Of a stretch of 64,000 bases of DNA, positions 5,151-61,061 are shown one piece after another. The DNA lies in the NCBI GenBank assembly GCA_964612105.1, contig CAZTEU010000001.1, positions 4,047 through 68,046 on the forward strand, read 5' to 3'. The notes under the pieces are model-generated. The model saw only the letters and a program-made list of their open reading frames with translations, searched no databases and was not told the DNA's origin. The translations under genes were made by a program, and so were the position numbers. The DNA comes from an uncultured Gammaproteobacteria bacterium (GTDB taxonomy: Bacteria; Patescibacteriota; Patescibacteriia; Magasanikbacterales; UBA922). Position 1 is the stretch's first letter; every line of letters starts with the position of its first letter.

Positions 5151-5840
5151 ATGAAAAAAAGGATTATAATTTCCGTAGGTGGTTCTATTGTTATTCCAAC
5201 AACAGGTTTTAATGTCTCTTTTCTAAAGAAATTTCGTCAATTAATAATAAAACATGTAAAAAAAGGGAATGAGTTTATCCTAGTAATAGGGGGTGGTTCT
5301 ACATGCAGGGACTATCAGCAGGCAGCAAAAAAGGTTCAACCAAAACTATCAGATAAGGACTTGGATTGGATAGGTATTCACACAACACGATTTAATGCAC
5401 AGTTTGTAAGATACCTATTTAAAGACATTTCTGCAGAGGAAATTATCACAGACCCACATAAGACAGTAAAAACAAAAAAACCTATAATCATAGGTGCTGG
5501 ATATGAGCCAGGACACTCAACAGATATGGATGCTGTATTGTTAGCCAAAAAATACAATGCTAAAACTGTAATTAATCTTTCTAATATAGATTACGTATTT
5601 ACAAAGGACCCTAGTAAATACAGAGACGCCAAAAAGATAAAAGAAATAGATTGGAAGACTTTTCGCAAAGATATTGTTGGAAATAAGTGGGATCCAGGAA
5701 AGAATGCACCTTTTGATCCTATAGCTAGTAGAGAGGCAGAGAAAATTGGTTTAACAGTATCAATTTTGCGTGGTACAAATCTTAAAGAGGTAGGCAATGC
5801 AATTTCTGGAAAAAACTTTAAAGGAACAATAATAAAATAA
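5151..5840 (+). CDS. pyrH: Amino-acid-kinase family protein, archaeal-type UMP kinase-like
   Basis: IISVGGSIV...LVIGGGSTCRDY...DWIGIHTTRFNAQF matches the archaeal UMPK pattern (GGSV...GGG.AR.Y...IGI..TRLNA). Confidence 0.55.
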   Translation: MKKRIIISVGGSIVIPTTGFNVSFLKKFRQLIIKHVKKGNEFILVIGGGSTCRDYQQAAKKVQPKLSDKDLDWIGIHTTRFNAQFVRYLFKDISAEEIITDPHKTVKTKKPIIIGAGYEPGHSTDMDAVLLAKKYNAKTVINLSNIDYVFTKDPSKYRDAKKIKEIDWKTFRKDIVGNKWDPGKNAPFDPIASREAEKIGLTVSILRGTNLKEVGNAISGKNFKGTIIK

Positions 5841-5876
5841 AAAAATTCCAGACTTATATCTGGGTTTTTAATATAG

Positions 5877-6578
5877 TTATAATTTTGTAAACCTAAGCTT
5901 AATAATAACCAGGAAGAATTCCACTATATCTTTTTTTGATAATTTTGACTTCCCCTCTTGTCTGTCTATGAAGGAAACTGGAACTTCACTTATTAAAAAA
6001 CCGGCTTTTTGGGTTCTATAGAGCATCTCTTCTTGAAATGCATAGCCATTACTCCTTATTTCATTTAGTTTGATACTTTCCAAAACTCTCCTCTTGTAAC
6101 ACCTAAAACCAGATGTAACATCCTTTGCCTTTAGACCAAGTAGTGTCCTTGAAAGCCACATGGCTCCATTACTCATGAATTTTCTTATCCAACCCCACCC
6201 AATTATTCTACCCCCCTCAATTTTCCGCGAACCTATCACTAAATCGTAATCATTTCCTGTCTTATACAGTAGGGGAATGTCATCTGGATCATGTGAAAAG
6301 TCTGCATCCATTTCAAATATATGAGTGGCTCCAATGTCTAGAGCACGTCTAAATCCAGCAATATATGCAGATCCGAGCCCAAACTTACCTTTACGCTCTA
6401 TTAAGGAAACTGGATACTGAGCCTGTAATGACTTAACAACATTAGCTGTACCATCTGGTGAGCTATCATCTACAACAATTATTTCAAGATTTTCAACTCC
6501 ATTAGAAAAAATTCTAGTAATCAGTTTACCTATATTGTCTCTTTCATTATAAGTTGGTATAACTATAATTGGCTTCAC
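5877..6578 (-). CDS. GT2-family polyprenyl-phosphate glycosyltransferase (Dpm1/GtrB-like)
   Basis: PTYNERDNIGKL...IIVVDDSSPDGT, a DxD glycosyltransferase-2 N-terminus. Confidence 0.75.
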   Translation of the reverse strand: MKPIIVIPTYNERDNIGKLITRIFSNGVENLEIIVVDDSSPDGTANVVKSLQAQYPVSLIERKGKFGLGSAYIAGFRRALDIGATHIFEMDADFSHDPDDIPLLYKTGNDYDLVIGSRKIEGGRIIGWGWIRKFMSNGAMWLSRTLLGLKAKDVTSGFRCYKRRVLESIKLNEIRSNGYAFQEEMLYRTQKAGFLISEVPVSFIDRQEGKSKLSKKDIVEFFLVIIKLRFTKL

Positions 6579-12433: not shown

Positions 12434-14161
12434 TTACATCTCTTTTATTACATAAGTGCCCATTTTTTTGTAGCCAAATTTCTTATAATAATCACGTACT
12501 CCAACCCCGGATATTACAGCAAGTTTATTATATTCATTTTCCTTTGTAATCTTTTCTGCAGCCTCTATAAGCTTCTTCCCAAGCCCTTTATGTTGTGAAG
12601 CTAACTCACTACGATCTCCAACTCTTACTAAAGTTCCATAAACATGGAGTTCCCTAATAAATGCAACACCCTTAATTTCTGGAATTAGGTCAAATAGTTC
12701 TTGTGAGTATGTGCTGTCCGGTATTCTAAGCCTTAGAAAGCCATAAACAGCCCTGCGGTTCTTGTCCTCAAAACTAAGGAAATATTCCTCACCTCCATCT
12801 GTTTCATATCTATCCACAAATAGAACCGGTTCACTAGTAATGTCTATATTTTTTTCCTGTCTTCCAATTTCCCTACAACGCAGACAAAGACAGCGTTTTC
12901 CATCTCTTTCTAACTCTTTAGATAGTTCCTCACGTAAGTTTGTGATTGAGTTTCCAGCATAGATTTCATTTGTTGGTATATCACGTATTAAACGAGATAT
13001 TCTACAGTATCTTGGAGTTAGTAATTTCATTTCTATAAGAGCCTTAAATAGCTCCTTCTCATCGTATGGTTTATATTTTCCATCTTTCCACCATTGGTAT
13101 AATTCTGCTGATTCCAGCACAGTGTTAGGGTATATCTTAATCATATCCGGCTTTAATCCTGGGTCTTCGAAGATGGTTTTATACATCTCGATATCATGTT
13201 TTGGTGTACTTCCTGGAAGATCTGGCATAAAGTGTAAATCAACCTTAAAACCAGCATTACGCAGTAAGCGCATTGCTCTTTTAAACTCCCGTACTGTATG
13301 TCCTCGTTTTACTAATTTTAATATTTCATCATCTGGAGCTTGTAAGCCTAATTCTATTCTAGTACACCCCTGCTGACGCATGTGGTAAATTGTTTTTGGA
13401 GAGATGGAATCTGGACGTGTTTCTAAAGTAATTCCAATTATTCTGTATCTAGCAGTTTCATTTTTTGTCTGCTCCTTTTCAACAATTTCTTTAAGCTCTT
13501 CTAAAGATTTATTAACAAAATCTTCTTCACAACTTTCTCCAATTGGTATTTCTTGAGATAAATCATTGCACGCTTTAAATGATTCATATATAAACCAGTA
13601 TTGATATTTTATTGGATATGCATTCCACGTTCCACCTTTAACTATAAATTCAATCTTATCTGCCTCATGACCATTCCTTTCTAACATCTTAATTCTCCTT
13701 TGCATCTGTTGATATGGAGAAAAATCAAGCCCTAGAGCTCTTGCTGCTGCAGGCTCGCTTGCAAGATAACTTTTTGGCATCCTTGCCTCTGTGGGGCAGT
13801 AAACACACTGACCCGGACAGTCATATGGTTTTACTAGGGAAGTAATAATAGATACTCCAGATAGACTTCTAATTGATGATTTTTTAAGAAAACTCTCAAA
13901 CAGCTCATTCTTTACTATCCTTTTCTTTTTGAGTAAACTCTGGTAGGCTGAAATAAACTCACGATTAGCCGGGCGTTGCATCTTTCTCTTACCGCAAGAA
14001 CGTCTCGCTACACTATTAAAATCATTACGAGTCTTCGGATTCGTTTCTATAACCTCTAGAAGTATATCTTCTAAGGTTTCTAAATTTGTTGTGTTTTCAA
14101 ACATGGATAAAGATAATGTAAAACAACTTATACAAATGAATCGCACCACATACAATGACAT
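12434..14161 (-). CDS. Elp3-like radical SAM plus GNAT acetyltransferase (tRNA wobble-uridine modification family)
   Basis: CPGQCVYCP radical-SAM cysteine triad, then a C-terminal GNAT domain. Length 575 aa, typical of Elp3. Confidence 0.8.
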   Translation of the reverse strand: MSLYVVRFICISCFTLSLSMFENTTNLETLEDILLEVIETNPKTRNDFNSVARRSCGKRKMQRPANREFISAYQSLLKKKRIVKNELFESFLKKSSIRSLSGVSIITSLVKPYDCPGQCVYCPTEARMPKSYLASEPAAARALGLDFSPYQQMQRRIKMLERNGHEADKIEFIVKGGTWNAYPIKYQYWFIYESFKACNDLSQEIPIGESCEEDFVNKSLEELKEIVEKEQTKNETARYRIIGITLETRPDSISPKTIYHMRQQGCTRIELGLQAPDDEILKLVKRGHTVREFKRAMRLLRNAGFKVDLHFMPDLPGSTPKHDIEMYKTIFEDPGLKPDMIKIYPNTVLESAELYQWWKDGKYKPYDEKELFKALIEMKLLTPRYCRISRLIRDIPTNEIYAGNSITNLREELSKELERDGKRCLCLRCREIGRQEKNIDITSEPVLFVDRYETDGGEEYFLSFEDKNRRAVYGFLRLRIPDSTYSQELFDLIPEIKGVAFIRELHVYGTLVRVGDRSELASQHKGLGKKLIEAAEKITKENEYNKLAVISGVGVRDYYKKFGYKKMGTYVIKEM

Positions 14162-15933: not shown

Positions 15934-17319
15934 TTAAGAAAGCTTATCCACAACCTGCTCAATCATATTCCTAAAGCTGTGAGAACCAAGGAAAACAACA
16001 ACATCTCCATCTTTTGTTGACTCTCTAATATATTTTACCAATTCTTCATCGCCATCAATATATTTTACATTTTTCTGAGTTTTAGAAATTATATCAGCTA
16101 GTTGCTCCCCATTCATTGGCTTATCAGAATCATTTGGGTCTACTTTTAATTTAGTAAGACGTGGGATTATTACTTCATCTGCATTTATAAATGCATCTGC
16201 ATACCCCTCTTCACTCTGAGATCTACGATTGCCTGTATTAGGCTCAAAGACAGCAACTACTCTTCCTTTATAAAGATTTTTTAAGGTTTTTAGTACTGCA
16301 GTAGCTTTGCTTGGTGAGTGTGCTATATCATCATACACATCAACAACACCTAAGCTTCTTTTCTGTAAACGACGCTTCATTCCTTTGAAAGTATTAATTG
16401 TGGATATAATATTTTCAGGTTTCATGCCAATCGTTATTGCCATTGCAAAGCACCCTGTAATATTATCTGCATTATATTCACCAATTATTGGAGATTCTAT
16501 ATTATATGTACTACCATTATTTATAATCTTAAAAGATAGTTTTTCTTTAGTCTGGACAACGTCTGTGTATTGGAAATCATTATCTTTCTCTTTTCCATAT
16601 GAAATATATGATCCAGATATTTTATCTCCAATTACAGATAGAGCTTTTTCTGAGATTACCATTACACCATCCTCATTTATTGAGTTTGCAAGTCCTATAA
16701 ATGCTTCTATGTATTTTTCTTCTGTTGGATATACATCTGCATGATCCCACACGATAGATGTAAGTAATAGATGAGAAGGGGAGTAGTGTGCAAATTTTGG
16801 ACTATTGTCCCACCTAGATGTTTTGTATTCATCTCCCTCAACAACGCTCCACTGTGAATCTTCTTGTATATTAGCTGGAGCAAGATCATTTATGCTTATT
16901 CCACCAAACATGTGATTAATCTTCTCGTTATTCTGAGTAAGAATCCATGTCATTAGAGTAGAGGTTGTAGATTTTCCATAAGTACCTGCACATACTATTG
17001 ATTTTTCTTTTATAAGAAACTCTGCAACAACCTCCGGATATGACTTGTACGGAATATTGTTTTCTTTTATATATAACAACTCTGGGTTTTTTGACCCTGC
17101 TACATTTCCTACAACTACTAAATCCGGTACACTTTCTGCTGTCATTTTTTCTGGATGCCAACCTGGATAGAAATTAATTCCAGCCTCTCTAAGATTATCC
17201 GAAACAGGAGGATAGAAACCTTTATCACTACCTGTCACTTTGTATCCCAACTTCTGGAATGCAATAGCAAGGGCACTCATTGCAACCCCGCATATTCCTA
17301 TGAAATGAATATGTTTCAT
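15934..17319 (-). CDS. Mur ligase family (MurC / Mpl-like UDP-N-acetylmuramate ligase)
   Basis: IGICGVAMSALA N-terminus, YPPVS, and the GTYGKSTTSTLM P-loop. Confidence 0.8.
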   Translation of the reverse strand: MKHIHFIGICGVAMSALAIAFQKLGYKVTGSDKGFYPPVSDNLREAGINFYPGWHPEKMTAESVPDLVVVGNVAGSKNPELLYIKENNIPYKSYPEVVAEFLIKEKSIVCAGTYGKSTTSTLMTWILTQNNEKINHMFGGISINDLAPANIQEDSQWSVVEGDEYKTSRWDNSPKFAHYSPSHLLLTSIVWDHADVYPTEEKYIEAFIGLANSINEDGVMVISEKALSVIGDKISGSYISYGKEKDNDFQYTDVVQTKEKLSFKIINNGSTYNIESPIIGEYNADNITGCFAMAITIGMKPENIISTINTFKGMKRRLQKRSLGVVDVYDDIAHSPSKATAVLKTLKNLYKGRVVAVFEPNTGNRRSQSEEGYADAFINADEVIIPRLTKLKVDPNDSDKPMNGEQLADIISKTQKNVKYIDGDEELVKYIRESTKDGDVVVFLGSHSFRNMIEQVVDKLS

Positions 17320-17963
17320 AGCTGTGCCTTTAGTTTGTCTAAATCTGTTTGCCAGTTTTCTCCATCAAACCATTCCAACCCCTTAAACTGCAATTTATAA
17401 GTATCTGTTGGTCTTTGGAATGAGCCTAAATAAATATATTCCTTACCTTTCTCCTTTGCATACTCAATTGCTTTTACCATCATGCTCATTCCAATATTTT
17501 TATTTTCATAATTGAGGTTGTAAAAAGGGTAGGAATAGTGGATTATTTTATCTGTTTCTTTTGCAATAGAATAACCTTGTGTTTTTTTGTCTGAAAAAAT
17601 AAATAGAAGATTGAAGTTATGTTCACCCTCTAGTAGTTCTTTCATTTTATTTGCGCTAAAAGTTCCCTCACCAAACTTTGTTTCGTAAAAATCTTTTCCT
17701 AGTTTTCCTATCTCCCAAGAATAATTGCTGTATGGAAGCGGGGAAATGGACATAGAAATCTCTTCTGTTTTTCTTAGCACCCTTTTATTCTCAGAAGAAA
17801 GTTCAAACTTATTCAAATCAACACGCACGCTCCTTGTTTGGTCCATTGCACCTTTGCTTTTGCGTGTAAAAACACAACCCTCGTTATATAGAGAGTTTAT
17901 ATTTTCATAAGAAAAATCAGTAATAATTTTTTCTTCATCATTGAAACGAAAGTAATCTGCCAT
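17316..17963 (-). CDS. ATE_C-domain aminoacyl-tRNA--protein transferase-like (Bpt-like)
   Basis: The C-terminal YIYLGSFQRPTDTYKLQFKGLEWFDGENW resembles the Bpt/ATE motif YVYLGYWI...NYK.RFRPLE..DG.W. The N-terminal Cys motif is absent. Confidence 0.5.
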   Translation of the reverse strand: MADYFRFNDEEKIITDFSYENINSLYNEGCVFTRKSKGAMDQTRSVRVDLNKFELSSENKRVLRKTEEISMSISPLPYSNYSWEIGKLGKDFYETKFGEGTFSANKMKELLEGEHNFNLLFIFSDKKTQGYSIAKETDKIIHYSYPFYNLNYENKNIGMSMMVKAIEYAKEKGKEYIYLGSFQRPTDTYKLQFKGLEWFDGENWQTDLDKLKAQL

Positions 17964-19326: not shown

Positions 19327-20283
19327 ATGACTACCACCCAGCAAAGGTTTGAGTTCGGAAATGGAATTCAAGCAGACGTGCTCGCAAACGCACTCAGAGG
19401 CTCATCAGCGATGCTACTCGCAAGAAGCGGGGACACTATCGGAGCGCATGCAATCCATCGTCCAGACGGAGCAGGTCTGCAAGACCCGCCGTCGGACATC
19501 GAAGACTCCGTGCTCTTCTCCACCGGCCTGAGGTTCGTCCCGGGAGGAATCTCCCTCATCGGCTTCACGCCAACTGGCACAAACGGATTCGAAGCATGTC
19601 TCGACGCATTCGACGGCGAGCTCATCCGTCAGTTCGGGGACACGGAGGACACCATCCTCCAGCACTTCTTCACGGCGCCCACAAGGCTGATCACACGACG
19701 ACAGATTCGCGCCTATGCCACGGTTGATGGTAGCCGGAAGCAGATCTTCAAGAACGAGCGCATCACCTGTGGTGATATCGAGCAACAAGATGATGATCTG
19801 AATGCCGCATGCATCGCAATCAGCGACGGACGCAGTCGTCACCGCCTCCTGAAGGTCAATCCCATTACGGGACGAACCATCGAGGCTGCCGGCTTCGCCA
19901 GTGCGATCAAGCACGTCAAGATCAGCCCGAACGGGTTCGTCTACGTGACGCTCACAGACGGAACACTGCGAATCTGCGGTTTCTACCGCAATCGCGTTGA
20001 TTTCAACCGAGTCGGCTCGATTCACCACGTGCGCAAGGTCGTGTTGCTCAAGGGACAGCAACTCGCCATTCTGGGCTCTGGTCGCCATCTCCTCCGAATC
20101 CTGAGCTACGGCTCTCACATCAAGAGGATCTCACTCGAAATCCCGGGATGCATGTCTGAGGAAAACACTGTGGCTCTCGGCTTCAGCGGATGTCATCCGG
20201 TCATCGTCGATCGGTCCACCGGTGTGACAGCGTTCCTCCCGCCGATCTCGGACATCGTTCCTCTCAACTGTCATTCGAACTGA
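19327..20283 (+). CDS. Orphan 318-aa protein encoded in a GC-rich (about 57%) island; no recognisable domain
   Basis: A long ORF whose composition contrasts sharply with the flanks. The antisense ORF 19414..20118 is a GC artefact. No signal peptide. Confidence 0.5.
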   Translation: MTTTQQRFEFGNGIQADVLANALRGSSAMLLARSGDTIGAHAIHRPDGAGLQDPPSDIEDSVLFSTGLRFVPGGISLIGFTPTGTNGFEACLDAFDGELIRQFGDTEDTILQHFFTAPTRLITRRQIRAYATVDGSRKQIFKNERITCGDIEQQDDDLNAACIAISDGRSRHRLLKVNPITGRTIEAAGFASAIKHVKISPNGFVYVTLTDGTLRICGFYRNRVDFNRVGSIHHVRKVVLLKGQQLAILGSGRHLLRILSYGSHIKRISLEIPGCMSEENTVALGFSGCHPVIVDRSTGVTAFLPPISDIVPLNCHSN

Positions 20284-21550: not shown

Positions 21551-21737
21551 ATTATTTGCATTATAGCAGGGATTTTACTCCGTGCAAGTACTAAAATGCA
21601 AAAAAGTAAACGATTTGTTTACTTTTATGTGTTTTTTGATGAGTCTATTAGACTGATTTTTGTTCCTAATACAAAATAATTGTGTATCTGCGCACAAGCC
21701 ATGTTGGTTTGTGACGACAGGTCGCCCCAAGGAGGGG

Positions 21738-22292
21738 ATGATGTTTGGGAAAAAAGTGTTTGTTCTGATGGTCGCATCTGCGCTGTTCGTTGGCTGTATG
21801 GCCGAGACCGAGGAAGATCTTCCTACCACGAAGCAGATTCAGGGCTCTGTCGCATACCAAGGTGTCGCGGTGGCAGGAGCTGAGGTGGTCGCGACAACCG
21901 GAGATGAGCCGGATTCGCCAAGCTTCGCAAGTGCATCGGATGATCTGGGCCACTTCTCGCTGGAGATGCCGAAAGATCTTCCGATCTGCAAAGTGCAGGC
22001 CGCTGTCGAACTCGATGGCAAGTTGCTTATTGGTGAAGCTCTGGATCCTGGCGAGTTGGACCCAATCGAGCTGAGGGAATTCACTGAGGAAGAGGCACAA
22101 GAAGCCCAGAAATCCTTCGATCTGGAGGTGGAAGGAGTCAGTACCTTTGTTGGGTACAAAGGGTGGGGTTGTGCGTGTCACAAGCAAGGCAAGTACTTCG
22201 GGAAGCTCTGCTGTGGCTACTACGAACTGAAAAAGCCTCAGAACGCAACCTTCTGCTCCATCCCACTACCGTTTGTCTGCTACTGGAAGTAG
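21738..22292 (+). CDS. GC-rich island lipoprotein with a Cys-rich C-terminus
   Basis: AAGGAGG SD, then MMFGKKVFVLMVASALFVGC (a lipobox). The C-terminal GWGCACHKQGKYFGKLCCGYYELKKPQNATFCSIPLPFVCYWK carries 8 Cys. I take the start at 21738, not the ORF-track 21660. Confidence 0.5.
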   Translation: MMFGKKVFVLMVASALFVGCMAETEEDLPTTKQIQGSVAYQGVAVAGAEVVATTGDEPDSPSFASASDDLGHFSLEMPKDLPICKVQAAVELDGKLLIGEALDPGELDPIELREFTEEEAQEAQKSFDLEVEGVSTFVGYKGWGCACHKQGKYFGKLCCGYYELKKPQNATFCSIPLPFVCYWK

Positions 22293-28703: not shown

Positions 28704-29231
28704 TCAGCGGTTGTCCGAGATGGTGTCCATCCACTCGATGTTCTTCGCTTTCGGCTTGATTGCTGGGTTCAGGCGAACCCGTAGCGTCTTCTTGTCGACC
28801 TTAGGAACCATCTGGCTGGTACGCTTGGTCTCGGGCTCCGCACATCTCTCAACCTGGGCAGGTGTCGGCTTCCTCCTCTCCCCAGTTTTGATGTTTCTTC
28901 TGTGCTGAAGGTCGAGCTGTTCTCGTTGTCTTCTTCTCTCGATTCTCCACACTAGGATTCCCAAGAGAAATACCACTAGAACGCCACCAAGCGTCATCAG
29001 GAAGAAATGGCTCTTGGTCTGCCCAAGTCTTCGCCAAATCCCACTGGATCCACCAAAGGCCAATGCCCAGTCACTGTAACCGAGCATCAGGAAGAAACAG
29101 ACTGTGACAATCAAGTCACGGATCCACTCCATTGTTCTCTGTGTCATTGCGCCCTCCTGCGCTGACCGCTGTACGGTCGGGTTTGTGTCCTTAGGACGCG
29201 TTTTTATATCATAAGTATGCCAATTTGTCAA
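28704..29231 (-). CDS. Small 2-TM membrane protein encoded in a GC-rich island; the start is probably an internal Met
   Basis: GC-rich ORF. Two hydrophobic helices. Arg-rich C-terminus. Confidence 0.4.
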   Translation of the reverse strand: MTNWHTYDIKTRPKDTNPTVQRSAQEGAMTQRTMEWIRDLIVTVCFFLMLGYSDWALAFGGSSGIWRRLGQTKSHFFLMTLGGVLVVFLLGILVWRIERRRQREQLDLQHRRNIKTGERRKPTPAQVERCAEPETKRTSQMVPKVDKKTLRVRLNPAIKPKAKNIEWMDTISDNR

Positions 29232-31129: not shown

Positions 31130-32614
31130 ATGGAAATAAAGAAACTATTCAAAACTATACAGAAAGTAAGCAAGAAAACATCTACCGATGTATATATTGT
31201 TGGTGGCTTTGTGAGGGATTTGCTTTTATTCGGAAAAAAGTATCAAGCAAAAGATATAGATTTTGTTGTTCTTGGTAGTGGATTAGAGTTTGCAAAGGAA
31301 TTTGACAGTGCAGTCAAGCAATCAGGCTCTTTAGTAGAGTTTGAGGATTTTGATACTGCTCGCTATGTCTTTGTAAAAGAGGATAAAAAAGGAAAAATTA
31401 TAGAAAAATTAGAAATAGAATTTGCAGGAGCTCGTAGTGAAGAATACAAGAAAATGTCACGTAAACCAAAAGTAGAACCAGCAACCCTAGAAAAAGATCT
31501 TTCACGTCGTGATTTTACAGTGAATGCAATGGCTCTTCCTATTTCTATATTTTCAAAAGGAGTTCCTTCAGATAAGGTAATAATGGAAAATCTAATAGAC
31601 CCATACGGCGGAACTAAAGACTTACAAAAAAAGGTAATCAAAACACCACTAAATCCAGATGAAACTTTTTCAGATGATCCACTAAGAATGCTACGAGCAG
31701 TTAGATTTGCATCTCAATTAGATTTCAAGATAGACAAAAAGACGTACAAATCAATAAAAGACTCTTCGTCCCGTCTTAGTATTATTTCTAAAGAAAGGGT
31801 GCAGGAAGAATTCTTTAAACTACTTGCAACAAAAAAACCTGTAGTTGGATTAGAGTTGTTACATGATAGTAAGCTATTCTTGGAGTTTATTCCAGAAATA
31901 AATGATCTAGAAGGAGTGGAAGAGGTAAAAGGCTACGCACATAAAGATAACCTATCACATACTTTCGCTGTGGTAGAAAATATATCACAATATACGGATA
32001 ATACTTTACTGAGGCTTGCAGGGCTTTTACATGACATTGCAAAGCCCAAAACAAAAAAACTAGAAAAAGGAAGAGGGTGGACCTTTGATATGCATGAGCA
32101 TCTTGGAAAGAAAATGGTAAGAGATATAGGAAAGAGGCTTAGAATGAAGAAAAGTGATACAGAGTATGTTGCAAATCTAGTTAGATGGCATCTGCAACCA
32201 ATATCCCTAATGGATGACGGAGTAACAGACAGTGCAGTCCGTCGCTTAGTTGTAAATTTAAAGGATGATTTAGATGATCTTCTACTACTGTGCAGGAGTG
32301 ATATAACTACAGGTAATCAGAAGAAAAAAAAGCGAAGACTAAAGAACTATGATGTATTAGAAAAAAGAATAGCTGAGGTGAATGAAAAGGATCAATTAAG
32401 GGCGTTTCAATCACCATTACGAGGCGAAGAGATAATGAAGCTTACAGGACTAAAACCAGGACCAACAGTAGGTAGAATTAAAAAAGCCATAGAAGAAGCT
32501 ATTCTAGATGGGGACATAAAGAATGAGTATAAAGCATCAAAAAAGTATTTCGAGAAGATAAAAGATAAGCTTATGAGAGATGTAGAGGGGTGGGAAATAG
32601 AAAAGAACAAATAA
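31130..32614 (+). CDS. cca: CCA-adding tRNA nucleotidyltransferase with HD domain
   Basis: IVGGFVRDLLL, HD motif HDIAKP. Confidence 0.85.
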   Translation: MEIKKLFKTIQKVSKKTSTDVYIVGGFVRDLLLFGKKYQAKDIDFVVLGSGLEFAKEFDSAVKQSGSLVEFEDFDTARYVFVKEDKKGKIIEKLEIEFAGARSEEYKKMSRKPKVEPATLEKDLSRRDFTVNAMALPISIFSKGVPSDKVIMENLIDPYGGTKDLQKKVIKTPLNPDETFSDDPLRMLRAVRFASQLDFKIDKKTYKSIKDSSSRLSIISKERVQEEFFKLLATKKPVVGLELLHDSKLFLEFIPEINDLEGVEEVKGYAHKDNLSHTFAVVENISQYTDNTLLRLAGLLHDIAKPKTKKLEKGRGWTFDMHEHLGKKMVRDIGKRLRMKKSDTEYVANLVRWHLQPISLMDDGVTDSAVRRLVVNLKDDLDDLLLLCRSDITTGNQKKKKRRLKNYDVLEKRIAEVNEKDQLRAFQSPLRGEEIMKLTGLKPGPTVGRIKKAIEEAILDGDIKNEYKASKKYFEKIKDKLMRDVEGWEIEKNK

Positions 32615-32640
32615 ATCCAGACCTACGTCTGGATTTTTGA
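32614..32640 (+). terminator. Terminator after cca
   Basis: AAATCCAGACctacgGTCTGGATTTTT. Confidence 0.6.
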
Positions 32641-32781
32641 TACAAAAAAATGGCTATTGCCATAACGTTTATTTTATTGAACCACGAGCCGGGACCATAC
32701 TACGCATTCGCAGTGATGATCCCGGCTCGGGTAACAGGCGCCAGATACCCCGCAGGTATCCTTGTGGTCGCCGGTCAGCGG

Positions 32782-32855
32782 TCGGGTGGGCTGGATTTGA
32801 ACCAGCGACCTTGAGCTTTGTAGGCTCACACTCTACCTGACTGAGCTACCCCCCG
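32782..32855 (-). tRNA. tRNA whose apparent anticodon is ACA (it would read Cys UGU); identity needs checking
   Basis: Minus-strand read CGGGGGGTAGCTCAGTCAGGTAGAGTGTGAGCCTACAAAGCTCAAGGTCGCTGGTTCAAATCCAGCCCACCCGA. Anticodon stem TGAGC/GCTCA, loop CTACAAA. T-arm GCTGGTTCAAATCCAGC. Confidence 0.7.
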
Positions 32856-32882
32856 AAAAAAGAACAAAGAACAATTAATCAA

Positions 32883-33063
32883 GCGGAACCCCCCAACCAG
32901 TGCGTCATCCGACTGTCCGCATGGAGGAGGGGTTCCGCTGTGCCAGCGGTGTTTTGCAAGCTACGGACTCCCGCAACCAGCCCTCAGGTGACTACCATGT
33001 GAGGCTACCGCTGGAACGAAGTGGTGGAGGGATTAGAACCCTTGTGCTTCGACGACTCACCAC
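32883..33063 (-). other. GC-rich structured flank of the tRNA: a 10-bp inverted repeat, and a tRNA-like minihelix with an acceptor-like stem and T-arm-like hairpin
   Basis: GCGGAACCCC...36 nt...GGGGTTCCGC at 32883-32938. GTGGTGG[AGGGattagaaCCCT]...TCACCAC at 33021-33063. On the minus strand the hairpin loop reads TTCTAAT, which is T-loop-like. Confidence 0.3.
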
Positions 33064-33179
33064 GGTACGAAGATTACGAAAATCATTTTACATTATGAAT
33101 ATAAAACTGTCAAACAGTATTTATTAACATATACACAATACATTGCTTTTGTGCGTAAAATCTAGTACAATATGCATAT

Positions 33180-40689: not shown

Positions 40690-41040
40690 ATACAACTTCA
40701 ACCCATAACCGGAGACCTACTCCATGCCACCAGGACTAGTAAGAGACTACTCGTTCAGACCAACAGCAATGCACAGGAAGTGCATGATGCAGGGATGTCG
40801 AGGATCTCGAGGGGGGTGTGTGCATTGCAGACACACTGGCTTCAAGCTTTCAAAGTCGGAGATTCGAGAGATCGATAATTCCGAACGGAGAAGCAGAAGG
40901 CGGCGTCGAATGCGCTAGACCCATGGTTCCAGGCAAAAACAACTAGTGGGGTTGAAGATGCAAAAGGACATTGTTTCGACCCCGACCTTTTACTTTGATT
41001 ACTCAATGTAAAAGTTAGGGGATAGGTCGAAGCAAACATA
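40690..41040. other. About 350-nt noncoding region with moderately elevated GC and several hairpins; candidate ncRNA
   Basis: No convincing ORF; the 64-aa ORF 40724..40918 is Arg-rich and low-complexity. GTGTGTGcattgcagaCACACT and TCGAGgatcTCGA stems. Ends at the AAAGAACCCGGttGGGTTCTTTTTTT terminator (41041..41066). Confidence 0.25.
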
Positions 41041-41064
41041 AAAGAACCCGGTTGGGTTCTTTTT

Positions 41065-49071: not shown

Positions 49072-49422
49072 ATGGGACATAAAAAACCTGAGTCAGACTT
49101 CGACCTTCATTTTGTAACAGCCTCTCCATTTCAAAAGTGGCTGGACAAGATAAACCCAGAAACTGCATTGTTGTTGGCAACCTTTTGGAACTGTATGATG
49201 GTAGTCATCTTATCTGCACCTCTCATCTGGGTAACCACTGACATGGATATGAGCTCTTCCATCGTATACGTTGCGGAGTATTGGTCTGAGTTTGCCCTCT
49301 TTATGATTGCGGCATTGGCACAACTCGCTATTCTCCTCATAGCAATGATTTCGTCTGTTCTGGCCTTCTCTGGACTTCTTTATCTGCTCGATAGGGTGTG
49401 CATGCGCTGTTCCAAATCCTGA
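49072..49422 (+). CDS. Small 3-TM membrane protein in a GC-elevated islet
   Basis: ORF in a region of about 48% GC, followed by a terminator near 49505..49540. Confidence 0.3.
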   Translation: MGHKKPESDFDLHFVTASPFQKWLDKINPETALLLATFWNCMMVVILSAPLIWVTTDMDMSSSIVYVAEYWSEFALFMIAALAQLAILLIAMISSVLAFSGLLYLLDRVCMRCSKS

Positions 49423-49588
49423 GTCCTCTCCGACCTACGGTCGTTGTACGCCGAACTGATTCGCTTCATGCGACAGCCAAGCGTCATGCGTGGGTCGGAA
49501 CAGTTCAAAAAAACACCAACAATGGTGTTTTTTTGTTTTATGCTCGTATTTACTTGATTTTTTAGCCAAATTTGTTACTATTAGTACT

Positions 49589-50260
49589 ATGAGTAAAGCA
49601 ATATTCTACATCGTAGCAACACCAATAGGTAATTTGGGAGATATGAGTCTCAGGGGAGTTGAGGTTCTTAAAGAAGTAGACACCGTGCTATGTGAAGACA
49701 CACGTGTAACAAAAAAGCTGTTAGCTTATTATAATATAGGAACAAAAACGTTGAGTTACCACCAGCATAGCTCAGAAAAGAAGATGGGAGAAATTGTGGA
49801 CTTACTTAATGGTGGAAACTCTCTAGCATTGGTTACAGATGCAGGTACACCAGGTATTAGTGATCCTGGTGGTGTGTTGATTGAATACATAGTAAAGAAT
49901 GCTCCAGATATAGACATTGTTCCAGTTCCAGGAGCTTCTGCTGTAGTTACAGCACTCAGTGTATCTGGTTTTCCTACAGACAAGTTTTTGTTTCTAGGTT
50001 TTCCTCCTCATAAGAACAAGAGAAAGAAGTTTTTTGAAGAAGTTGCTGAGTCAAAACATACGGTTGCATTTTATGAATCTAATCATAGGATAAAGAAAGC
50101 ATTAAAGGAATTGAGCGATATGTTAGGTGGTGATAGGAAAGTATGTGTTTGTAGGGAGCTTACAAAGAAGTTTGAAAGCACATACAGAGGAACAATAGAA
50201 GAGATTATGGAAATGGATATACCAGAAAAAGGGGAATTCGTTGTAGTTATAAGAAGATAA
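49589..50260 (+). CDS. rsmI: 16S rRNA (cytidine1402-2'-O)-methyltransferase RsmI
   Basis: IFYIVATPIGNLGDMSLRGVEVLKEVDTVLCEDTR, a tetrapyrrole-methylase fold. Start taken at MSKAIFY. Confidence 0.85.
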   Translation: MSKAIFYIVATPIGNLGDMSLRGVEVLKEVDTVLCEDTRVTKKLLAYYNIGTKTLSYHQHSSEKKMGEIVDLLNGGNSLALVTDAGTPGISDPGGVLIEYIVKNAPDIDIVPVPGASAVVTALSVSGFPTDKFLFLGFPPHKNKRKKFFEEVAESKHTVAFYESNHRIKKALKELSDMLGGDRKVCVCRELTKKFESTYRGTIEEIMEMDIPEKGEFVVVIRR

Positions 50261-57354: not shown

Positions 57355-58134
57355 ATGGAGATACATATCCCAACATTAGCTCCTGAGGTTATATTTAATC
57401 TGGGGCCTATTGCCATAACAAATACTTTGATTAATACATGGATAGCAATTATTTTGTTCCTTCTCTTGGCATATGCGCTTAGAGGGAAGATTAAAATGAA
57501 GCCCGGTAAACTACAGAATGCTTGTGAACATGTCCTAGAATTGTTATTTCCTTATTTTGATCAGGTAACAGGTGATAGGAAGAAAACAATTAGGTTTTTA
57601 CCTGTAGTGGGCTCTATCTTCTTTTTTATATTACTGTCTAATTGGTTGGGGTTAATTCCAGGTACAGGCAGTATTAGTGTTGGGCACAACTTCTTACTAC
57701 GACCTGCTAATTCAGATTTAAACCTAACTGTGGCAATGGCACTAGTTGCAGTAATCTCCTCACACCTATTTGGTTTTATTACAATTGGGGTATTTACACA
57801 TGTAGGCAAATTTTTACAATTTGGTGGATTTATTAAAAGTCTTAAAAAAGGGCCGATTGCAATATTTACAGCAATAATAGAATTTGGTGTAGGTATTCTA
57901 GAGATTATTAGTGAGATTGCAAAAATATTATCTTTGTCTCTACGTTTGTTTGGAAATATATTTGCTGGCGAAGTGCTAATTTCTGTAATAGGTGCACTAG
58001 TAGCTTTTCTGGTTCCAACTCCTTTTATGCTTTTAGAGCTACTTGTTGGCTTGATACAAGCATCCGTATTTGCTATGTTAACTTTGGTGTATTTAACGGT
58101 TGCAAGTGAAATGCCCCATGGTTCGCATGATTAA
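57355..58134 (+). CDS. atpB: ATP synthase F0 subunit a, copy 1
   Basis: LSLSLRLFGNIFAGEVL with the conserved Arg. Confidence 0.9.
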   Translation: MEIHIPTLAPEVIFNLGPIAITNTLINTWIAIILFLLLAYALRGKIKMKPGKLQNACEHVLELLFPYFDQVTGDRKKTIRFLPVVGSIFFFILLSNWLGLIPGTGSISVGHNFLLRPANSDLNLTVAMALVAVISSHLFGFITIGVFTHVGKFLQFGGFIKSLKKGPIAIFTAIIEFGVGILEIISEIAKILSLSLRLFGNIFAGEVLISVIGALVAFLVPTPFMLLELLVGLIQASVFAMLTLVYLTVASEMPHGSHD

Positions 58135-58215
58135 TTATTGTATTTATTAAGATTCCATCCGCGAGGTTAAAAATCATTCCCACTCGGCCGGCTCTGGAGT
58201 TATAACAAAAACCGT

Positions 58216-58449
58216 ATGTTTCAAGGACTAGATCACGCATCCGTAGTGGTGCTAGCGAAGGCATTTACTATTGGTATTGGTAGTATAGGGCCTGCCTTTG
58301 CTATTGGAAGACTTGTGGCCAAGGCAATGGAAGCTATTGGTAGAAATCCAGGAGCAGCTGGAAAAGTATTCGTTCCCATGCTTCTTGGGGCTGCTTTTGC
58401 AGAGGCAATTGCAATTTATGCACTTGTTGTTGTGTTTACACTTAAATAA
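58216..58449 (+). CDS. atpE: ATP synthase F0 subunit c, copy 1 (H+-type ion site)
   Basis: Hairpin c-subunit. Ion site AFAEAIAIY with no Ser/Thr after Glu, and no Gln/Glu in helix 1. Confidence 0.85.
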   Translation: MFQGLDHASVVVLAKAFTIGIGSIGPAFAIGRLVAKAMEAIGRNPGAAGKVFVPMLLGAAFAEAIAIYALVVVFTLK

Positions 58450-58452
58450 TTC

Positions 58453-59061
58453 TTGTCGCAAGACACTAAAAGTCTGAATATGGCGACAGAAATACACATT
58501 GATGAACATGTAGCTGAAGATGGAGTAGAGGTTCATACTACAGTGGAATCTCATGGCGCTGCAGCTGATGAAGGTGTTTTAGCATCACTTGGACTAAATG
58601 CCCAGTTGTTTGGTTTTCAGGTGCTCAATTTTGCAATAGTGGTGCTTGTACTATGGTTTTTAATACTAAAACCTCTTGTAAAGCAGATGGAAGAGAGAAA
58701 AACTCTTGTAGATGAGAGTATAGACAATGCAAAAGAGGCAGAAGTTAACCTAGAAATGAGCAAAAAGAAGTATGAAGAGTCCTTAGATAAAGCTAAAACC
58801 GAGGCAAATAAGATTGTAGAAAAAGCTCATGATGATGCAAGACAGCACGCAGAAGGTGTAAAAACGAGAGCTAAGGAAGAGATAGAGCAGTTAATTGACA
58901 AAGCAAAGAATGATATTAGGGATCAAAGGGTACACATGGTCGATGAAATAAAAGAGGAGACTCTAGGCCTTGTTGTAAGGATATCTGAGAAATTCTTAGC
59001 AACAAAGGTAGATAAAGAGTCAGATACTAAGATAATTGAAGAAATTGTAAAGAATATATAA
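58453..59061 (+). CDS. atpF: ATP synthase F0 subunit b, copy 1
   Basis: N-terminal TM helix, then a long charged coiled coil. Confidence 0.8.
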   Translation: MSQDTKSLNMATEIHIDEHVAEDGVEVHTTVESHGAAADEGVLASLGLNAQLFGFQVLNFAIVVLVLWFLILKPLVKQMEERKTLVDESIDNAKEAEVNLEMSKKKYEESLDKAKTEANKIVEKAHDDARQHAEGVKTRAKEEIEQLIDKAKNDIRDQRVHMVDEIKEETLGLVVRISEKFLATKVDKESDTKIIEEIVKNI

Positions 59062-59473: not shown

Positions 59474-60253
59474 ATGTTATTTAGTGTAAAAGCAGAACAA
59501 GCACCCATAAGACCAGAGACAATTTTTAATATCGGATCTCTAGATATAACAAACGCAATGATTTTGGGTGTAATAATAACAATTGGTTTTACATTTTTTT
59601 CCCTGTACATAAGAAAAAGAAGAAAACTTGTACCATCAAAATTTCAGACTATATTAGAAATTACAGTACAAAGCTTTCTCAATTTATTAGAACAGATTGC
59701 TGGATCAAAAAAAGCAGCAAGGACACTTCTTCCACTTGTAGGGACAATATTCTTGTTTTTTGGTGTTTCAAACCTTATAGGATTAATTCCGGGTGTTACA
59801 GCTTTCACATACAATGGAGCACCTTTGCTTAGAACACCTACAAATGATTTCAACATGACATTTAGTATTGCTCTTGCTATGATTATACTTACACAGGTTG
59901 TGAGTATTAAGGAATTTGGACTTTTTGGGCACCTTGGTAAGTTTATTAAAGTGAAAGAAGTTATAGTTGGGTTTAGGCATGGGTTTAAAAGTGGAATAAT
60001 GTCTATTGTAGATTTTGTTCTAGGGTTACTGGATATAATTTCAGAAATTGCAAAAGTGTTCTCACTTTCGCTAAGGCTGTTTGGAAATATGTATGCTGGA
60101 GAAGTGTTGATGGTTGTTCTACTGGGAGCATTTGCAGTTGCTGTGCCAAGTATTTGGTTAGCTATGAACCTACTTGTGGGAGTATTGCAGGCAATGGTAT
60201 TTGGAGCACTTACAGCTGCGTATTATGGACTGGCTGTACAAAAAATGGAGTAA
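59474..60253 (+). CDS. atpB: ATP synthase F0 subunit a, copy 2
   Basis: FSLSLRLFGNMYAGEVL. Confidence 0.85.
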   Translation: MLFSVKAEQAPIRPETIFNIGSLDITNAMILGVIITIGFTFFSLYIRKRRKLVPSKFQTILEITVQSFLNLLEQIAGSKKAARTLLPLVGTIFLFFGVSNLIGLIPGVTAFTYNGAPLLRTPTNDFNMTFSIALAMIILTQVVSIKEFGLFGHLGKFIKVKEVIVGFRHGFKSGIMSIVDFVLGLLDIISEIAKVFSLSLRLFGNMYAGEVLMVVLLGAFAVAVPSIWLAMNLLVGVLQAMVFGALTAAYYGLAVQKME

Positions 60254-60284
60254 ATAAATTTAACTTAATTAATAATATAAATAT

Positions 60285-60500
60285 ATGGAAGTAGAAGCAG
60301 CACACCTTATCGCAAAAGGGCTTTGTACAATTACCATGGGAGGTTCTGGTATTGGTGAGGGATACCTCATAGGAAAGGCTTTAGAAGCTATTGGACGAAA
60401 CCCTAAAGTAGAGGGTAATATATTTCCAAAGATGTTTATTGGAGTTGCATTAGCAGAGTCCACTGCTATTTACGCTCTAGTTGCATTCTTTATTATCTAA
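60285..60500 (+). CDS. atpE: ATP synthase F0 subunit c, copy 2 (Na+-type ion site)
   Basis: GIGEGYLIGKALEAIGRNP...ALAESTAIYALV. The E-S-T...Y signature matches Na+-binding c-subunits (for example I. tartaricus AESTGIYSLV), with Glu in place of the helix-1 Gln. Confidence 0.85.
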   Translation: MEVEAAHLIAKGLCTITMGGSGIGEGYLIGKALEAIGRNPKVEGNIFPKMFIGVALAESTAIYALVAFFII

Positions 60501-60557
60501 AGTAGATTGTGTAGCCCTGGCGCTCAGGGCCACATAGATGTATAGTAGATAATCAAT

Positions 60558-61061
60558 ATGCAGTTTATATTAGAAAACTTAGGAAAAATAGGATTTGAGT
60601 GGAAAATGGCTCTTTTTAACCTTGTAAACTTCCTTATTCTTTTTTGGATACTTAAGAGGTATTTCTTCAAGCCAATTGTTGCTACAATAGACGAAAGACA
60701 GGCAAAGGCTAAAGAGAGTATGGATAATTTCCAAAGAGCCAAGACAGAACTTCAGTTAGCTGAGAAGAGGGCACAAGATATTGTAGATGAGGCAAAAGTC
60801 GAATCGAACAAGATAATTTCCAAATCACATGATGATGGAAAAGAACTTGGTCAGAATTTGCGTTTGCGTGCTAAAGAGGAGATTGAAAAGGTGATTGATC
60901 AGGCTAAACAAAATATAGAGGTAGATAGAAAGAAAATGAGAGAGGAGCTAAAAAAAGAGACTGCTGGACTTGTGGTTTCTGCTGTAGAAAAAGTAATTGA
61001 TACAAAATTAGATAAAAAAAGTGATGAAAAGATTGTAAAAGAAGCAATAGTGCAACTATAA
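60558..61061 (+). CDS. atpF: ATP synthase F0 subunit b, copy 2
   Basis: TM helix plus coiled coil. Confidence 0.75.
   Translation: MQFILENLGKIGFEWKMALFNLVNFLILFWILKRYFFKPIVATIDERQAKAKESMDNFQRAKTELQLAEKRAQDIVDEAKVESNKIISKSHDDGKELGQNLRLRAKEEIEKVIDQAKQNIEVDRKKMREELKKETAGLVVSAVEKVIDTKLDKKSDEKIVKEAIVQL

Follow-up and report, generated by a model that had tools for sequence, protein, structure and literature searches.

A GC-rich array of tRNA-like elements and stable hairpins beside the cca gene of a Magasanikbacteria-like bacterium

I analysed a 64-kb stretch of DNA (contig CAZTEU010000001.1; referred to here as the window) from a Magasanikbacteria-like chromosome of the candidate phyla radiation (CPR). 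In the gap between cca, the gene for the CCA-adding enzyme, and yidC lies a GC-rich block at 32643..33113 on the minus strand, which is called here the RNA unit. Its flanks consist of bacA, gpsA, and cca on one side and of yidC, band-7, hrcA, NUDIX-grpE, and hsp20 on the other. The GC content is 0.55-0.63 within the block and 0.30-0.40 in the flanking DNA, while that of the whole window is 37.6%. The minus strand of 32640-33100 has a folding energy of -184 kcal/mol (z -6.2 against shuffles), and the 591-nt region is 100% identical across four independent assemblies from ENA, JGI (two samples), and Logan. The promoter and the terminator listed in Table 1 bracket the block exactly, which implies a single precursor of about 430 nt. 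The predicted order in this precursor is a minihelix, a three-way junction, a hairpin, an A/U spacer, a tRNA with the anticodon ACA, and two hairpins. The rest of the window is ordinary chromosome with aminoacyl-tRNA synthetase genes, murein genes, dnaK/dnaJ, fmt/def, priA, and ATP synthase genes. Homologues of the CCA-adding enzyme, of which the closest is only 73% identical, bear the names Candidatus Magasanikbacteria or Parcubacteria. A Pfam domain scan of the 55 open reading frames (ORFs) of the window found no ProRS, CysRS, TyrRS, TadA, integrase, or Ro/TROVE protein.

Table 1. Elements of the RNA unit in the window and of the same gap in three related genomes.
Feature	Position	Strand	Basis or remarks
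10-bp perfect hairpin, terminates convergent cca (31130..32614, +)	32613..32636	.	Inverted repeat I5
Intrinsic-terminator-like hairpin ATGGCAATAGCCAT with seven-T run, end of RNA unit	32643..32663	-	
19-bp near-perfect GC-rich hairpin, then UGGUUCAAU	32686..32728	-	dG -33.8, z -7.3; inverted repeat I3, direct repeat D9
Hairpin with internal loop, 3' trailer	32732..32777	-	dG -20.7, z -1.8
Cloverleaf tRNA, anticodon ACA, 74 nt	32782..32855	-	ARAGORN, Rfam alignment, four identical assemblies
A/U-rich spacer and tRNA 5' leader	32856..32881	-	Direct reading of sequence
Long GC-rich hairpin, 13 continuous bp	32882..32939	-	dG -37.2, z -5.5; inverted repeat I1
Three-way junction: 8-bp closing stem CCAGCGGU/ACCGCUGG, D-arm-like hairpin (loop with GGUA), 8-bp hairpin	32943..33014	-	dG -34.8, z -3.1; 0/200 shuffles fold equally well
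tRNA-like minihelix, 45 nt	33020..33064	-	6-bp acceptor-like stem, 14-nt linker, T-like arm, then U and UCG
Sigma-70-type promoter TTGACA-17-TAAAAT	33085..33113	-	11/12 consensus positions; divergent from yidC
L086 (OZ246405.1), cca 73% identical: 117-nt tRNA-like, tRNA(CAU), 101-nt tRNA-like, 24-bp hairpin (z -5.3), GC-rich small ORF	6519-6403 (117-nt), 6226-6126 (101-nt), 5572-5946 (ORF)	-	101-nt element: Rfam tRNA 30.5 bits
L096, cca 68% identical: 46-nt minihelix and about 550 nt of long hairpins	5583..5538 (minihelix)	-	Hairpins z -4.6
L098, cca 65% identical: two tRNAs with enlarged anticodon regions (CGCCCAUAG; 13-nt insert), long hairpin	5294-5112 (tRNAs)	-	Rfam 49.7 and 49.5 bits; ARAGORN labels SeC(tca) and Trp(cca)

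The first-pass annotation of this DNA had described a normal cloverleaf with ACA at positions 34-36, and this was confirmed by both programs used here. ARAGORN called three tRNAs in the window, one of which was tRNA-Cys(aca) at 32780..32855 on the minus strand. The Rfam tRNA model (RF00005) scored 64.6 bits at 32782..32855, above its gathering score of 29 and between the tRNA-Val (69.1 bits) and the tRNA-Trp (60.2 bits) of the window. In the Rfam alignment, the acceptor strands CGGGGGG and CCACCCG form C1:G72, G2:C71, G3:C70, G4:C69, G6:C67, and G7:C66, with a G5.A68 mismatch. These are joined by U8, A9, the D arm GCUC-AGUCAGGUA-GAGU, the anticodon stem UGAGC/GCUCA with the loop C32 U33 A34 C35 A36 A37 A38 (CUACAAA), the variable loop AGGUC, and the T arm GCUGG-UUCAAAU-CCAGC. 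The discriminator A73 is followed by CCG, so CCA is not encoded. The tRNA retains U8, A14, G15:C48, G18G19, U33, G53:C61, and the T-loop UUCAAAU, and A21 is present. A base-call error that turned GCA into ACA, which the first-pass annotation had named as a possible refutation, was ruled out by the four identical assemblies, and another anticodon register was ruled out because ARAGORN and Rfam both give a stem of 5 bp and a loop of 7 nt. The leader is complementary to the anticodon arm over 11 nt (I8), which was judged to be at chance level.

The label given by ARAGORN follows from the anticodon. In all three domains, the determinants of tRNA-Cys are U73 and G34-C35-A36, to which G2:C71 and C3:G70 are added in bacteria (PMC9976931). 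The ACA tRNA resembles a canonical bacterial tRNA-Cys(GCA) in its cloverleaf and in C35-A36, but positions 73, 34, and 3:70 differ (A73, A34, and G3:C70, where a tRNA-Cys has U73, G34, and C3:G70), and its C1:G72 is likewise at odds with a cysteine identity. To judge from these nucleotides, the cloverleaf is almost certainly not a cysteine tRNA, and the cysteine identity that the first-pass annotation had implied was not upheld. Its second suggestion was the deamination of A34 to inosine. The loop offers U33-A34-C35, three of the four bases recognised by TadA, and in this respect it resembles a TadA-edited tRNA-Arg(ACG). However, the recognition sequence of the TadA enzymes of Escherichia coli and Staphylococcus aureus is U33-A34-C35-G36, in which G36 is strictly preferred (PMC10586758), and the ACA tRNA has A36. 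Since the loop has A36, inosine formation seems doubtful, by the standard of two enzymes that may differ from the one of the host.

The third suggestion was that the tRNA might also read UGA. In the host, UGA is a normal stop codon: under translation table 11, the 55 ORFs end in 41 TAA, 8 TAG, and 6 TGA, three of the TGA stops overlap with the start of the next gene, and in four cases the next in-frame stop codon follows within 1-7 codons. The housekeeping proteins and Pfam domains are full length under table 11, and the conserved proteins show no in-frame problems. Cysteine codons in the ORFs of the window comprise 110 UGU and 42 UGC (42/152), which speaks against an A34 tRNA as the cysteine decoder. 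Because 28% of the cysteine codons are UGC, codon usage in the 64-kb window argues that a canonical G34 tRNA-Cys(GCA) lies elsewhere in the genome. The ACA gene is also missing in relatives with 65-73% cca identity. It is therefore hardly credible that the gene encodes a true tRNA-Cys whose A34 (possibly I34) would read UGU and UGC, and perhaps also UGA; the identity nucleotides point neither to an A34/I34 cysteine decoder nor to UGA recoding. An annotation by anticodon would nevertheless label this gene tRNA-Cys and could prompt a false claim of either kind.

Upstream of the ACA tRNA in the predicted precursor, the first-pass annotation had noticed a 43-nt element at 33021..33063 that looked like an acceptor stem plus T arm only. 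This minihelix was found again, with a T-like arm of a 4-bp stem and the loop UUCUAAU, and a positional counterpart exists in a relative as described below. Its folding energy is unremarkable (z -0.8). There are only three copies of the T-loop consensus GGTTCNANTCC in 64 kb (0.31 expected), one each in the tRNA-Val, the ACA tRNA, and the minihelix. Likewise, a scanner for an acceptor stem plus T arm matched only the three tRNAs and the minihelix in the window, with a background of 0.75-1.0 matches per 64 kb on both strands in shuffled or 58%-GC random sequence. The tmRNA tRNA-like domain that had been proposed for it was not borne out. ARAGORN found no tmRNA, the Rfam tmRNA model gave 7.6 bits (gathering score 47) with its whole middle deleted, and position 3:70 is G3:C70 in the register of the first-pass annotation or U3:A70 in that of the scanner, neither of which is the tmRNA-type G3:U70. 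Nor is a tRNA 3'-end remnant of an attachment (att) site supported, since such a remnant would have lost the complementary 5' strand, which the minihelix retains.

The array of long-stem, GC-rich hairpins that had been reported around the ACA tRNA is real, two of them with z -5.5 and -7.3. The 10-bp inverted repeat with a 36-nt loop is present as AGCGGAACCCC at 32882-32892 and GGGGTTCCGCT at 32929-32939, within the longer continuous stem listed in Table 1. Similarly, the 9-bp inverted repeat of GAGCCGGGA at 32686-32694 and TCCCGGCTC at 32720-32728 extends to the 19-bp hairpin. The 5' end of the three-way junction, CCAGCGGUAGCCUCA, resembles the 5' end of the ACA tRNA (direct repeat D3). Searches of the flanking RNA for tmRNA, RNase P RNA, signal recognition particle RNA, 6S RNA, ribozymes, and other Rfam families, at the gathering score and at E<=10, gave only generic or chance matches. 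A family of repeated hairpins, such as repetitive extragenic palindromes (REP) or miniature inverted-repeat transposable elements (MITE), was rejected, as the hairpins of the unit are not repeated elsewhere in the window.

Is this unit conserved at the same site in related genomes? The region downstream of cca was compared in ten of them. Three relatives (L086, L096, and L098) have minus-strand tRNA-like units in the cca-yidC gap, with different contents (Table 1). In L086, the 117-nt element has an intact acceptor stem and T arm (G1:C72, G2.U71, G3.U70, and A73, an alanine and tmRNA-type acceptor), and its middle is expanded by two hairpins in the D-loop region; the 101-nt element is class-II-like with an 8-nt loop. 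The ORF downstream of these elements in the same gap encodes 124 amino acids with a signal-peptide-like N-terminus and has no PHROG match. The L096 minihelix has the same architecture as that of the window, with 6/7 acceptor pairs, a 15-nt linker, a 5-bp T stem, and the loop UUCCAAU. It gave a weak match to the Rfam mascRNA model (26.4 bits, E 0.005, under the gathering score of 42.5), while the window minihelix gave no match to the mascRNA-menRNA model at E<=10. A MAFFT alignment of the two minihelices was out of keeping with their structure.

In L086, L096, and L098, the end of a minus-strand promoter of the form TTGAC(A/T/C)-17-TAnnnT precedes the first tRNA-like element by 14-17 nt, and the promoter-to-element distance is 14-21 nt when the window is included. 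Terminator-like hairpins were found in three of the four occupied loci. All eight elements of the four loci keep the acceptor stem (6-7/7 pairs) and the T arm, and their D/anticodon domain is deleted, expanded, or irregular; that of the window cloverleaf is regular but non-cognate. As for the other relatives, L087 has a 371-nt gap with no tRNA-like elements, L089, L099, and L101 have empty gaps of about 50 nt, and L088, L097, and L100 are not syntenic at the locus. A further relative at 73% identity (JGI 3300072015) has a gap of 476 nt. Since the gap is empty in three genomes, the RNA unit is dispensable. A profile search of genome contigs with the cca alignment matched mostly Bacteroidota, and the three CPR loci among the matches listed had no RNA unit.

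This patchy distribution over occupied, different, and empty gaps might indicate decay, in which a former tRNA cluster, native or acquired, has left functionless pseudogenes. The minihelix would then be an internally deleted tRNA, the junction and the hairpins would be rearranged fragments, and ACA would be a mutated anticodon. The G5.A68 mismatch in the acceptor stem of the ACA tRNA, the irregular 8-9-nt loops in the relatives, the T-loop-like UGGUUCAAU that runs into AT-rich sequence after the last hairpin, and the absence of a conserved sequence common to the loci are all consistent with such relics. Weak internal repeats (D2-D5 and D9) suggest local duplication of tRNA pieces, but such repeats are at chance level (0.5-0.8 expected by my estimate), and D2-D5 were rejected on this ground. 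On the other hand, a GC content of 55-63% is maintained in a streamlined genome of 37.6% GC, near-perfect stems of 13-19 bp with z -5.5 to -7.3 are not an expected product of decay, near-consensus promoters exist in all four occupied loci and terminator-like hairpins in three, and the ACA tRNA scores level with canonical tRNAs. Taking these together, decay of a former tRNA cluster or of foreign DNA is the main alternative, if less likely than not.

If the ACA tRNA is charged, by which enzyme? The bacterial proline determinants are C1:G72, A73, G15:C48, and G49 in addition to G35, G36, and G37, and the archaeal/eukaryal tyrosine set has C1:G72 and A73 (PMC9976931). The ACA tRNA thus carries the bacterial proline set outside the anticodon. 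Best full-length BLAST matches in phage records include annotated tRNA-Pro as well as tRNA-Thr and tRNA-Arg, and the tRNA-Pro genes of a CPR relative have CGGG..GTAGC...CCCGA in common with it. The overall similarity to 60-odd tRNAs is 0.62-0.72 for many isotypes and does not discriminate any of them. Thus, an assignment to the proline or tyrosine type rests on C1:G72, A73, G15:C48, and G49 only.

These nucleotides raise the question of whether the ACA tRNA has a dual identity like the tRNAProX species (tRNAProA, tRNAProT, and tRNAProN) of Streptomyces and Kitasatospora, which combine a proline-type acceptor with an A34 anticodon of another amino acid (PMC10404621). It would be charged with proline by ProRS or with tyrosine by an archaeal-type TyrRS, and it would read UGU and weakly UGC, causing low-level or conditional mistranslation of cysteine codons as proline or tyrosine. 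The tRNAProX family also joins C1:G72 and A73 to A34 anticodons (AGC, AGU, and AUU), and its members can serve as substrates of E. coli ProRS (PMC10404621); in both cases, annotation by anticodon would give a wrong label. Many Parcubacteria have an archaeal-type TyrRS with a C1:G72 tRNA-Tyr (PMC5370408), and the cloverleaf with its 7-nt loop and A36-A37-A38 is fully canonical. However, the tRNAProX hallmarks A33, A15:A48, and G21 are replaced by U33, G15:C48, and A21 in the window tRNA. While ProRSx is usually encoded alongside tRNAProX, whose anticodons belong to alanine, threonine, and asparagine, the window tRNA has a cysteine anticodon in a CPR host and lies between cca and yidC, with no ProRS-like gene adjacent or within the 64-kb window. 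The strong determinants G35 and G36 for ProRS (with G37 also in the proline set) and G34 and U35 for TyrRS conflict with A34, C35, and A36, and the tRNA is overall no more similar to tRNA-Pro than to other isotypes. In addition, the elements at the same site in the relatives cannot decode normally, and the gene is absent from close relatives. A dual-identity tRNA is thus improbable.

It was also assessed whether the block is a scar or cargo of a mobile element, that is, foreign GC-rich DNA that landed beside tRNA fragments serving as attachment sites or brought them along. A GC-rich island in an AT-rich genome, a gap that is variable or empty in relatives, and the additional GC-rich ORF for a secreted protein in the L086 island would be compatible with this. 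Also in its favour, a 25-nt sequence covering the T arm and the acceptor 3' strand of the ACA tRNA had one exact match, which lies in a viral contig of 65% GC (L102, IMG/VR UViG_3300035674_000009). There it belongs to the first of two tandem YrlA-like Y RNAs at 1755-2001 on the minus strand (Rfam 41.1 bits, E 2.4e-7, and 35.2 bits), and the copy has U5:A68 in place of G5.A68. This match is a lead and possibly a coincidence: it sits in a YrlA-type tRNA mimic, not in an att site, and a chance match is possible among very many tRNA-like sequences. The att-site remnant proposed by the first-pass annotation found no support in the window either, where there is no direct-repeated tRNA 3' fragment, integrase island, integrase, or transposase, and flanking direct repeats are at chance level. 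The hairpins have no match in phage or plasmid collections, in which only the tRNA part matches other tRNAs; no phage or plasmid match exceeded generic tRNA similarity, and no PHROG match was found. Together with the lack of hairpin copies elsewhere in the window, these results make a mobile-element origin quite improbable.

Tentatively, with a probability of about 0.4, I interpret the block as an accessory, fast-evolving, lineage-specific operon of tRNA-mimic RNAs, in which the anticodon probably does not serve decoding. RNase P, RNase Z, and the CCA-adding enzyme need no more of a tRNA than the acceptor/T-arm stack, their minimal substrate. For this reason, and because cca adjoins the unit, the tRNA-shaped modules would most likely be handles for processing, stability, or protein binding. 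Its transcription, processing, and role may be envisaged as follows. The near-consensus promoter would give rise to the precursor of about 430 nt, ended by the intrinsic terminator, with the minihelix at its 5' end and the complete ACA-loop cloverleaf as two tRNA-shaped modules that alternate with very stable GC-rich hairpins. The precursor might be cut into the minihelix, a two-element RNA of about 140 nt, the 74-nt tRNA-shaped RNA, and a hairpin trailer of about 100 nt. Selection would act on the acceptor/T-arm stack and on the stable hairpins and not on decoding, so that the anticodon domain would be free of decoding constraint and ACA incidental. Should the ACA tRNA be charged, the acceptor end suggests ProRS or an archaeal-type TyrRS as the enzyme and not CysRS.

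An operon of tRNA mimics fits best: it would account for the non-cognate ACA, the minihelices, and the enlarged loops in the relatives, and also for the high GC content, the retention of the promoters, and the fact that the unit is dispensable. Four observations weigh against it. The ACA cloverleaf has a fully canonical 7-nt anticodon loop (U33, A37, and A38) and D arm, as a decoding tRNA would. The hairpins have no sequence homologue in phages, plasmids, or the relatives' loci examined. The orthology of the elements across the four loci is one of position and architecture, without primary-sequence homology. Decay or horizontal insertion would explain the patchy distribution just as well.

A bolder and rather improbable version may be stated for Magasanikbacteria. 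The site beside cca would be a fixed home of a rapidly diversifying tRNA-mimic operon with complete cloverleaves, whose anticodon loops are non-cognate or enlarged, and 45-nt acceptor/T-arm minihelices. Processed by RNase P, RNase Z, and the CCA-adding enzyme, these would be handles that free long GC-rich hairpin RNAs. Or else the ACA cloverleaf would be a proline- or tyrosine-accepting tRNA with which a symbiont of minimal genome deliberately misreads cysteine codons. If true, the operon would parallel, in bacteria, tRNA-punctuated or mascRNA-type processing and would yield an undescribed class of small structured RNAs. The locus is compact and testable: it spans about 430 nt behind a single promoter, and the same site carries different cargo in three relatives.

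Pattern scans showed that ACA-loop tRNAs with a common D arm are very rare, being found at one viral and five metagenome loci, none of which is related to the window gene. Five of these loci, including the viral one, are phage tRNA arrays with an ACA-loop tRNA-like element that ARAGORN did not call; one is a truncated fragment. In four phage tRNA arrays (L090, L092, L093, and L094; three with 13-14 tRNAs), the uncalled element lies beside a canonical tRNA-Cys(GCA). L091 is among the loci found: at 2488-2561 on the plus strand, in a Val-Asp-ACA-Asp array, it carries a tRNA(ACA) whose body is Val-like and whose CCA is encoded. A scan of viral contigs with the 15-mer of the anticodon arm gave 113 matches, which were judged to be chance; ARAGORN called no ACA tRNA among the loci.

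The window contains other GC-rich intergenic islands. One of about 300 nt at 2535-2850 on the plus strand, upstream of a gene for a metallo-beta-lactamase-fold protein, has a multi-branched fold of -139 kcal/mol (z -8.2) that includes a 14-bp perfect hairpin, and it has no Rfam match even at E<=0.5. Another, at 40690-41062, separates dnaJ from a Wzy-like gene and also lacks an Rfam match; its folds have z -6.2 (plus strand) and -5.6 (minus strand). The 9-mer CCGGAGACC is common to these two islands and occurs three times in the window (0.07 expected). A short island at 49400-49510 overlaps with the start of a TP_methylase-family gene (ORF 49490-50260). As the RNA unit illustrates, GC-rich intergenic islands in AT-rich CPR genomes mark structured RNAs outside the Rfam families, with at least two more in this window. 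Three ORFs at 19327-20283 (+), 21660-22292 (+), and 28704-29231 (-) are also GC-rich (up to 0.64), and two of them end in TGA. Neither Pfam nor PHROG gave a significant match for them, and they may be lineage-specific or have been acquired horizontally.

A few other genes of the window deserve mention. The minus-strand gene at 17316-17963 encodes a 215-residue protein that matches ATE_C, the C-terminal domain of arginine-tRNA-protein transferase (E 2e-6). It sits between genes for a Mur ligase and a Glycos_transf_4 family glycosyltransferase (MraY-like), a context that suggests an aminoacyl-tRNA-dependent cell-wall enzyme. This protein could be a client for non-decoding tRNAs, but its gene is about 15 kb away from the RNA unit. 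A protein with radical-SAM and GNAT domains, an Elp3-like architecture uncommon in bacteria, is encoded at 12434-14161 on the minus strand, three genes from tsaE with an SHMT gene in between. On the plus strand, 57355-59061 and 59474-61061 hold two consecutive atpB-atpF pairs for the ATP synthase a and b subunits, whose a subunits are 39% identical.

Among known systems other than tRNAProX, the irregular-tRNA polycistrons of Acidobacteria encode tRNAs that are chargeable yet unused in translation (Mukai et al. 2017, PMC5389517; review PMC7609411). The RNA unit resembles these allo-tRNA-like polycistrons in having several non-canonical tRNA-like genes per transcript and an anticodon at odds with identity (PMC5389517). 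In contrast to their 8/4 or 9/3 acceptor/T structure, long variable arms, G-1 or E-loops, and frequent position near toxin-antitoxin genes, the window locus lies between housekeeping genes and combines a 7/5 cloverleaf with a minihelix and long GC-rich hairpins. YrlA (RF02553) is likewise a bacterial non-coding RNA with a tRNA mimic (T arm, acceptor-like stem, and D arm) that is recognised by tRNA enzymes. It differs in its permuted tRNA-like domain, capped acceptor stem, Ro-binding stem, and linkage to rsr; the YrlA model gave no match in the window region at E<=10. The mascRNA/menRNA family (RF01684) shares an acceptor/T-arm fold without a proper anticodon arm that acts as a signal for RNase P and RNase Z processing. 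As this is a family of vertebrate long non-coding RNA 3' ends and all scores were below its gathering score, the likeness is a structural analogy only. Judged by its sequence features, the locus may join these known kinds, the dual-identity or irregular tRNAs and the tRNA mimics in non-coding RNAs, as a further candidate. If the operon is functional, it would give the few known bacterial tRNA mimics and irregular-tRNA polycistrons (tRNAProX, allo-tRNA polycistrons, and YrlA) a CPR example, and it would suggest that acceptor/T-arm minihelices serve as processing modules in bacteria.

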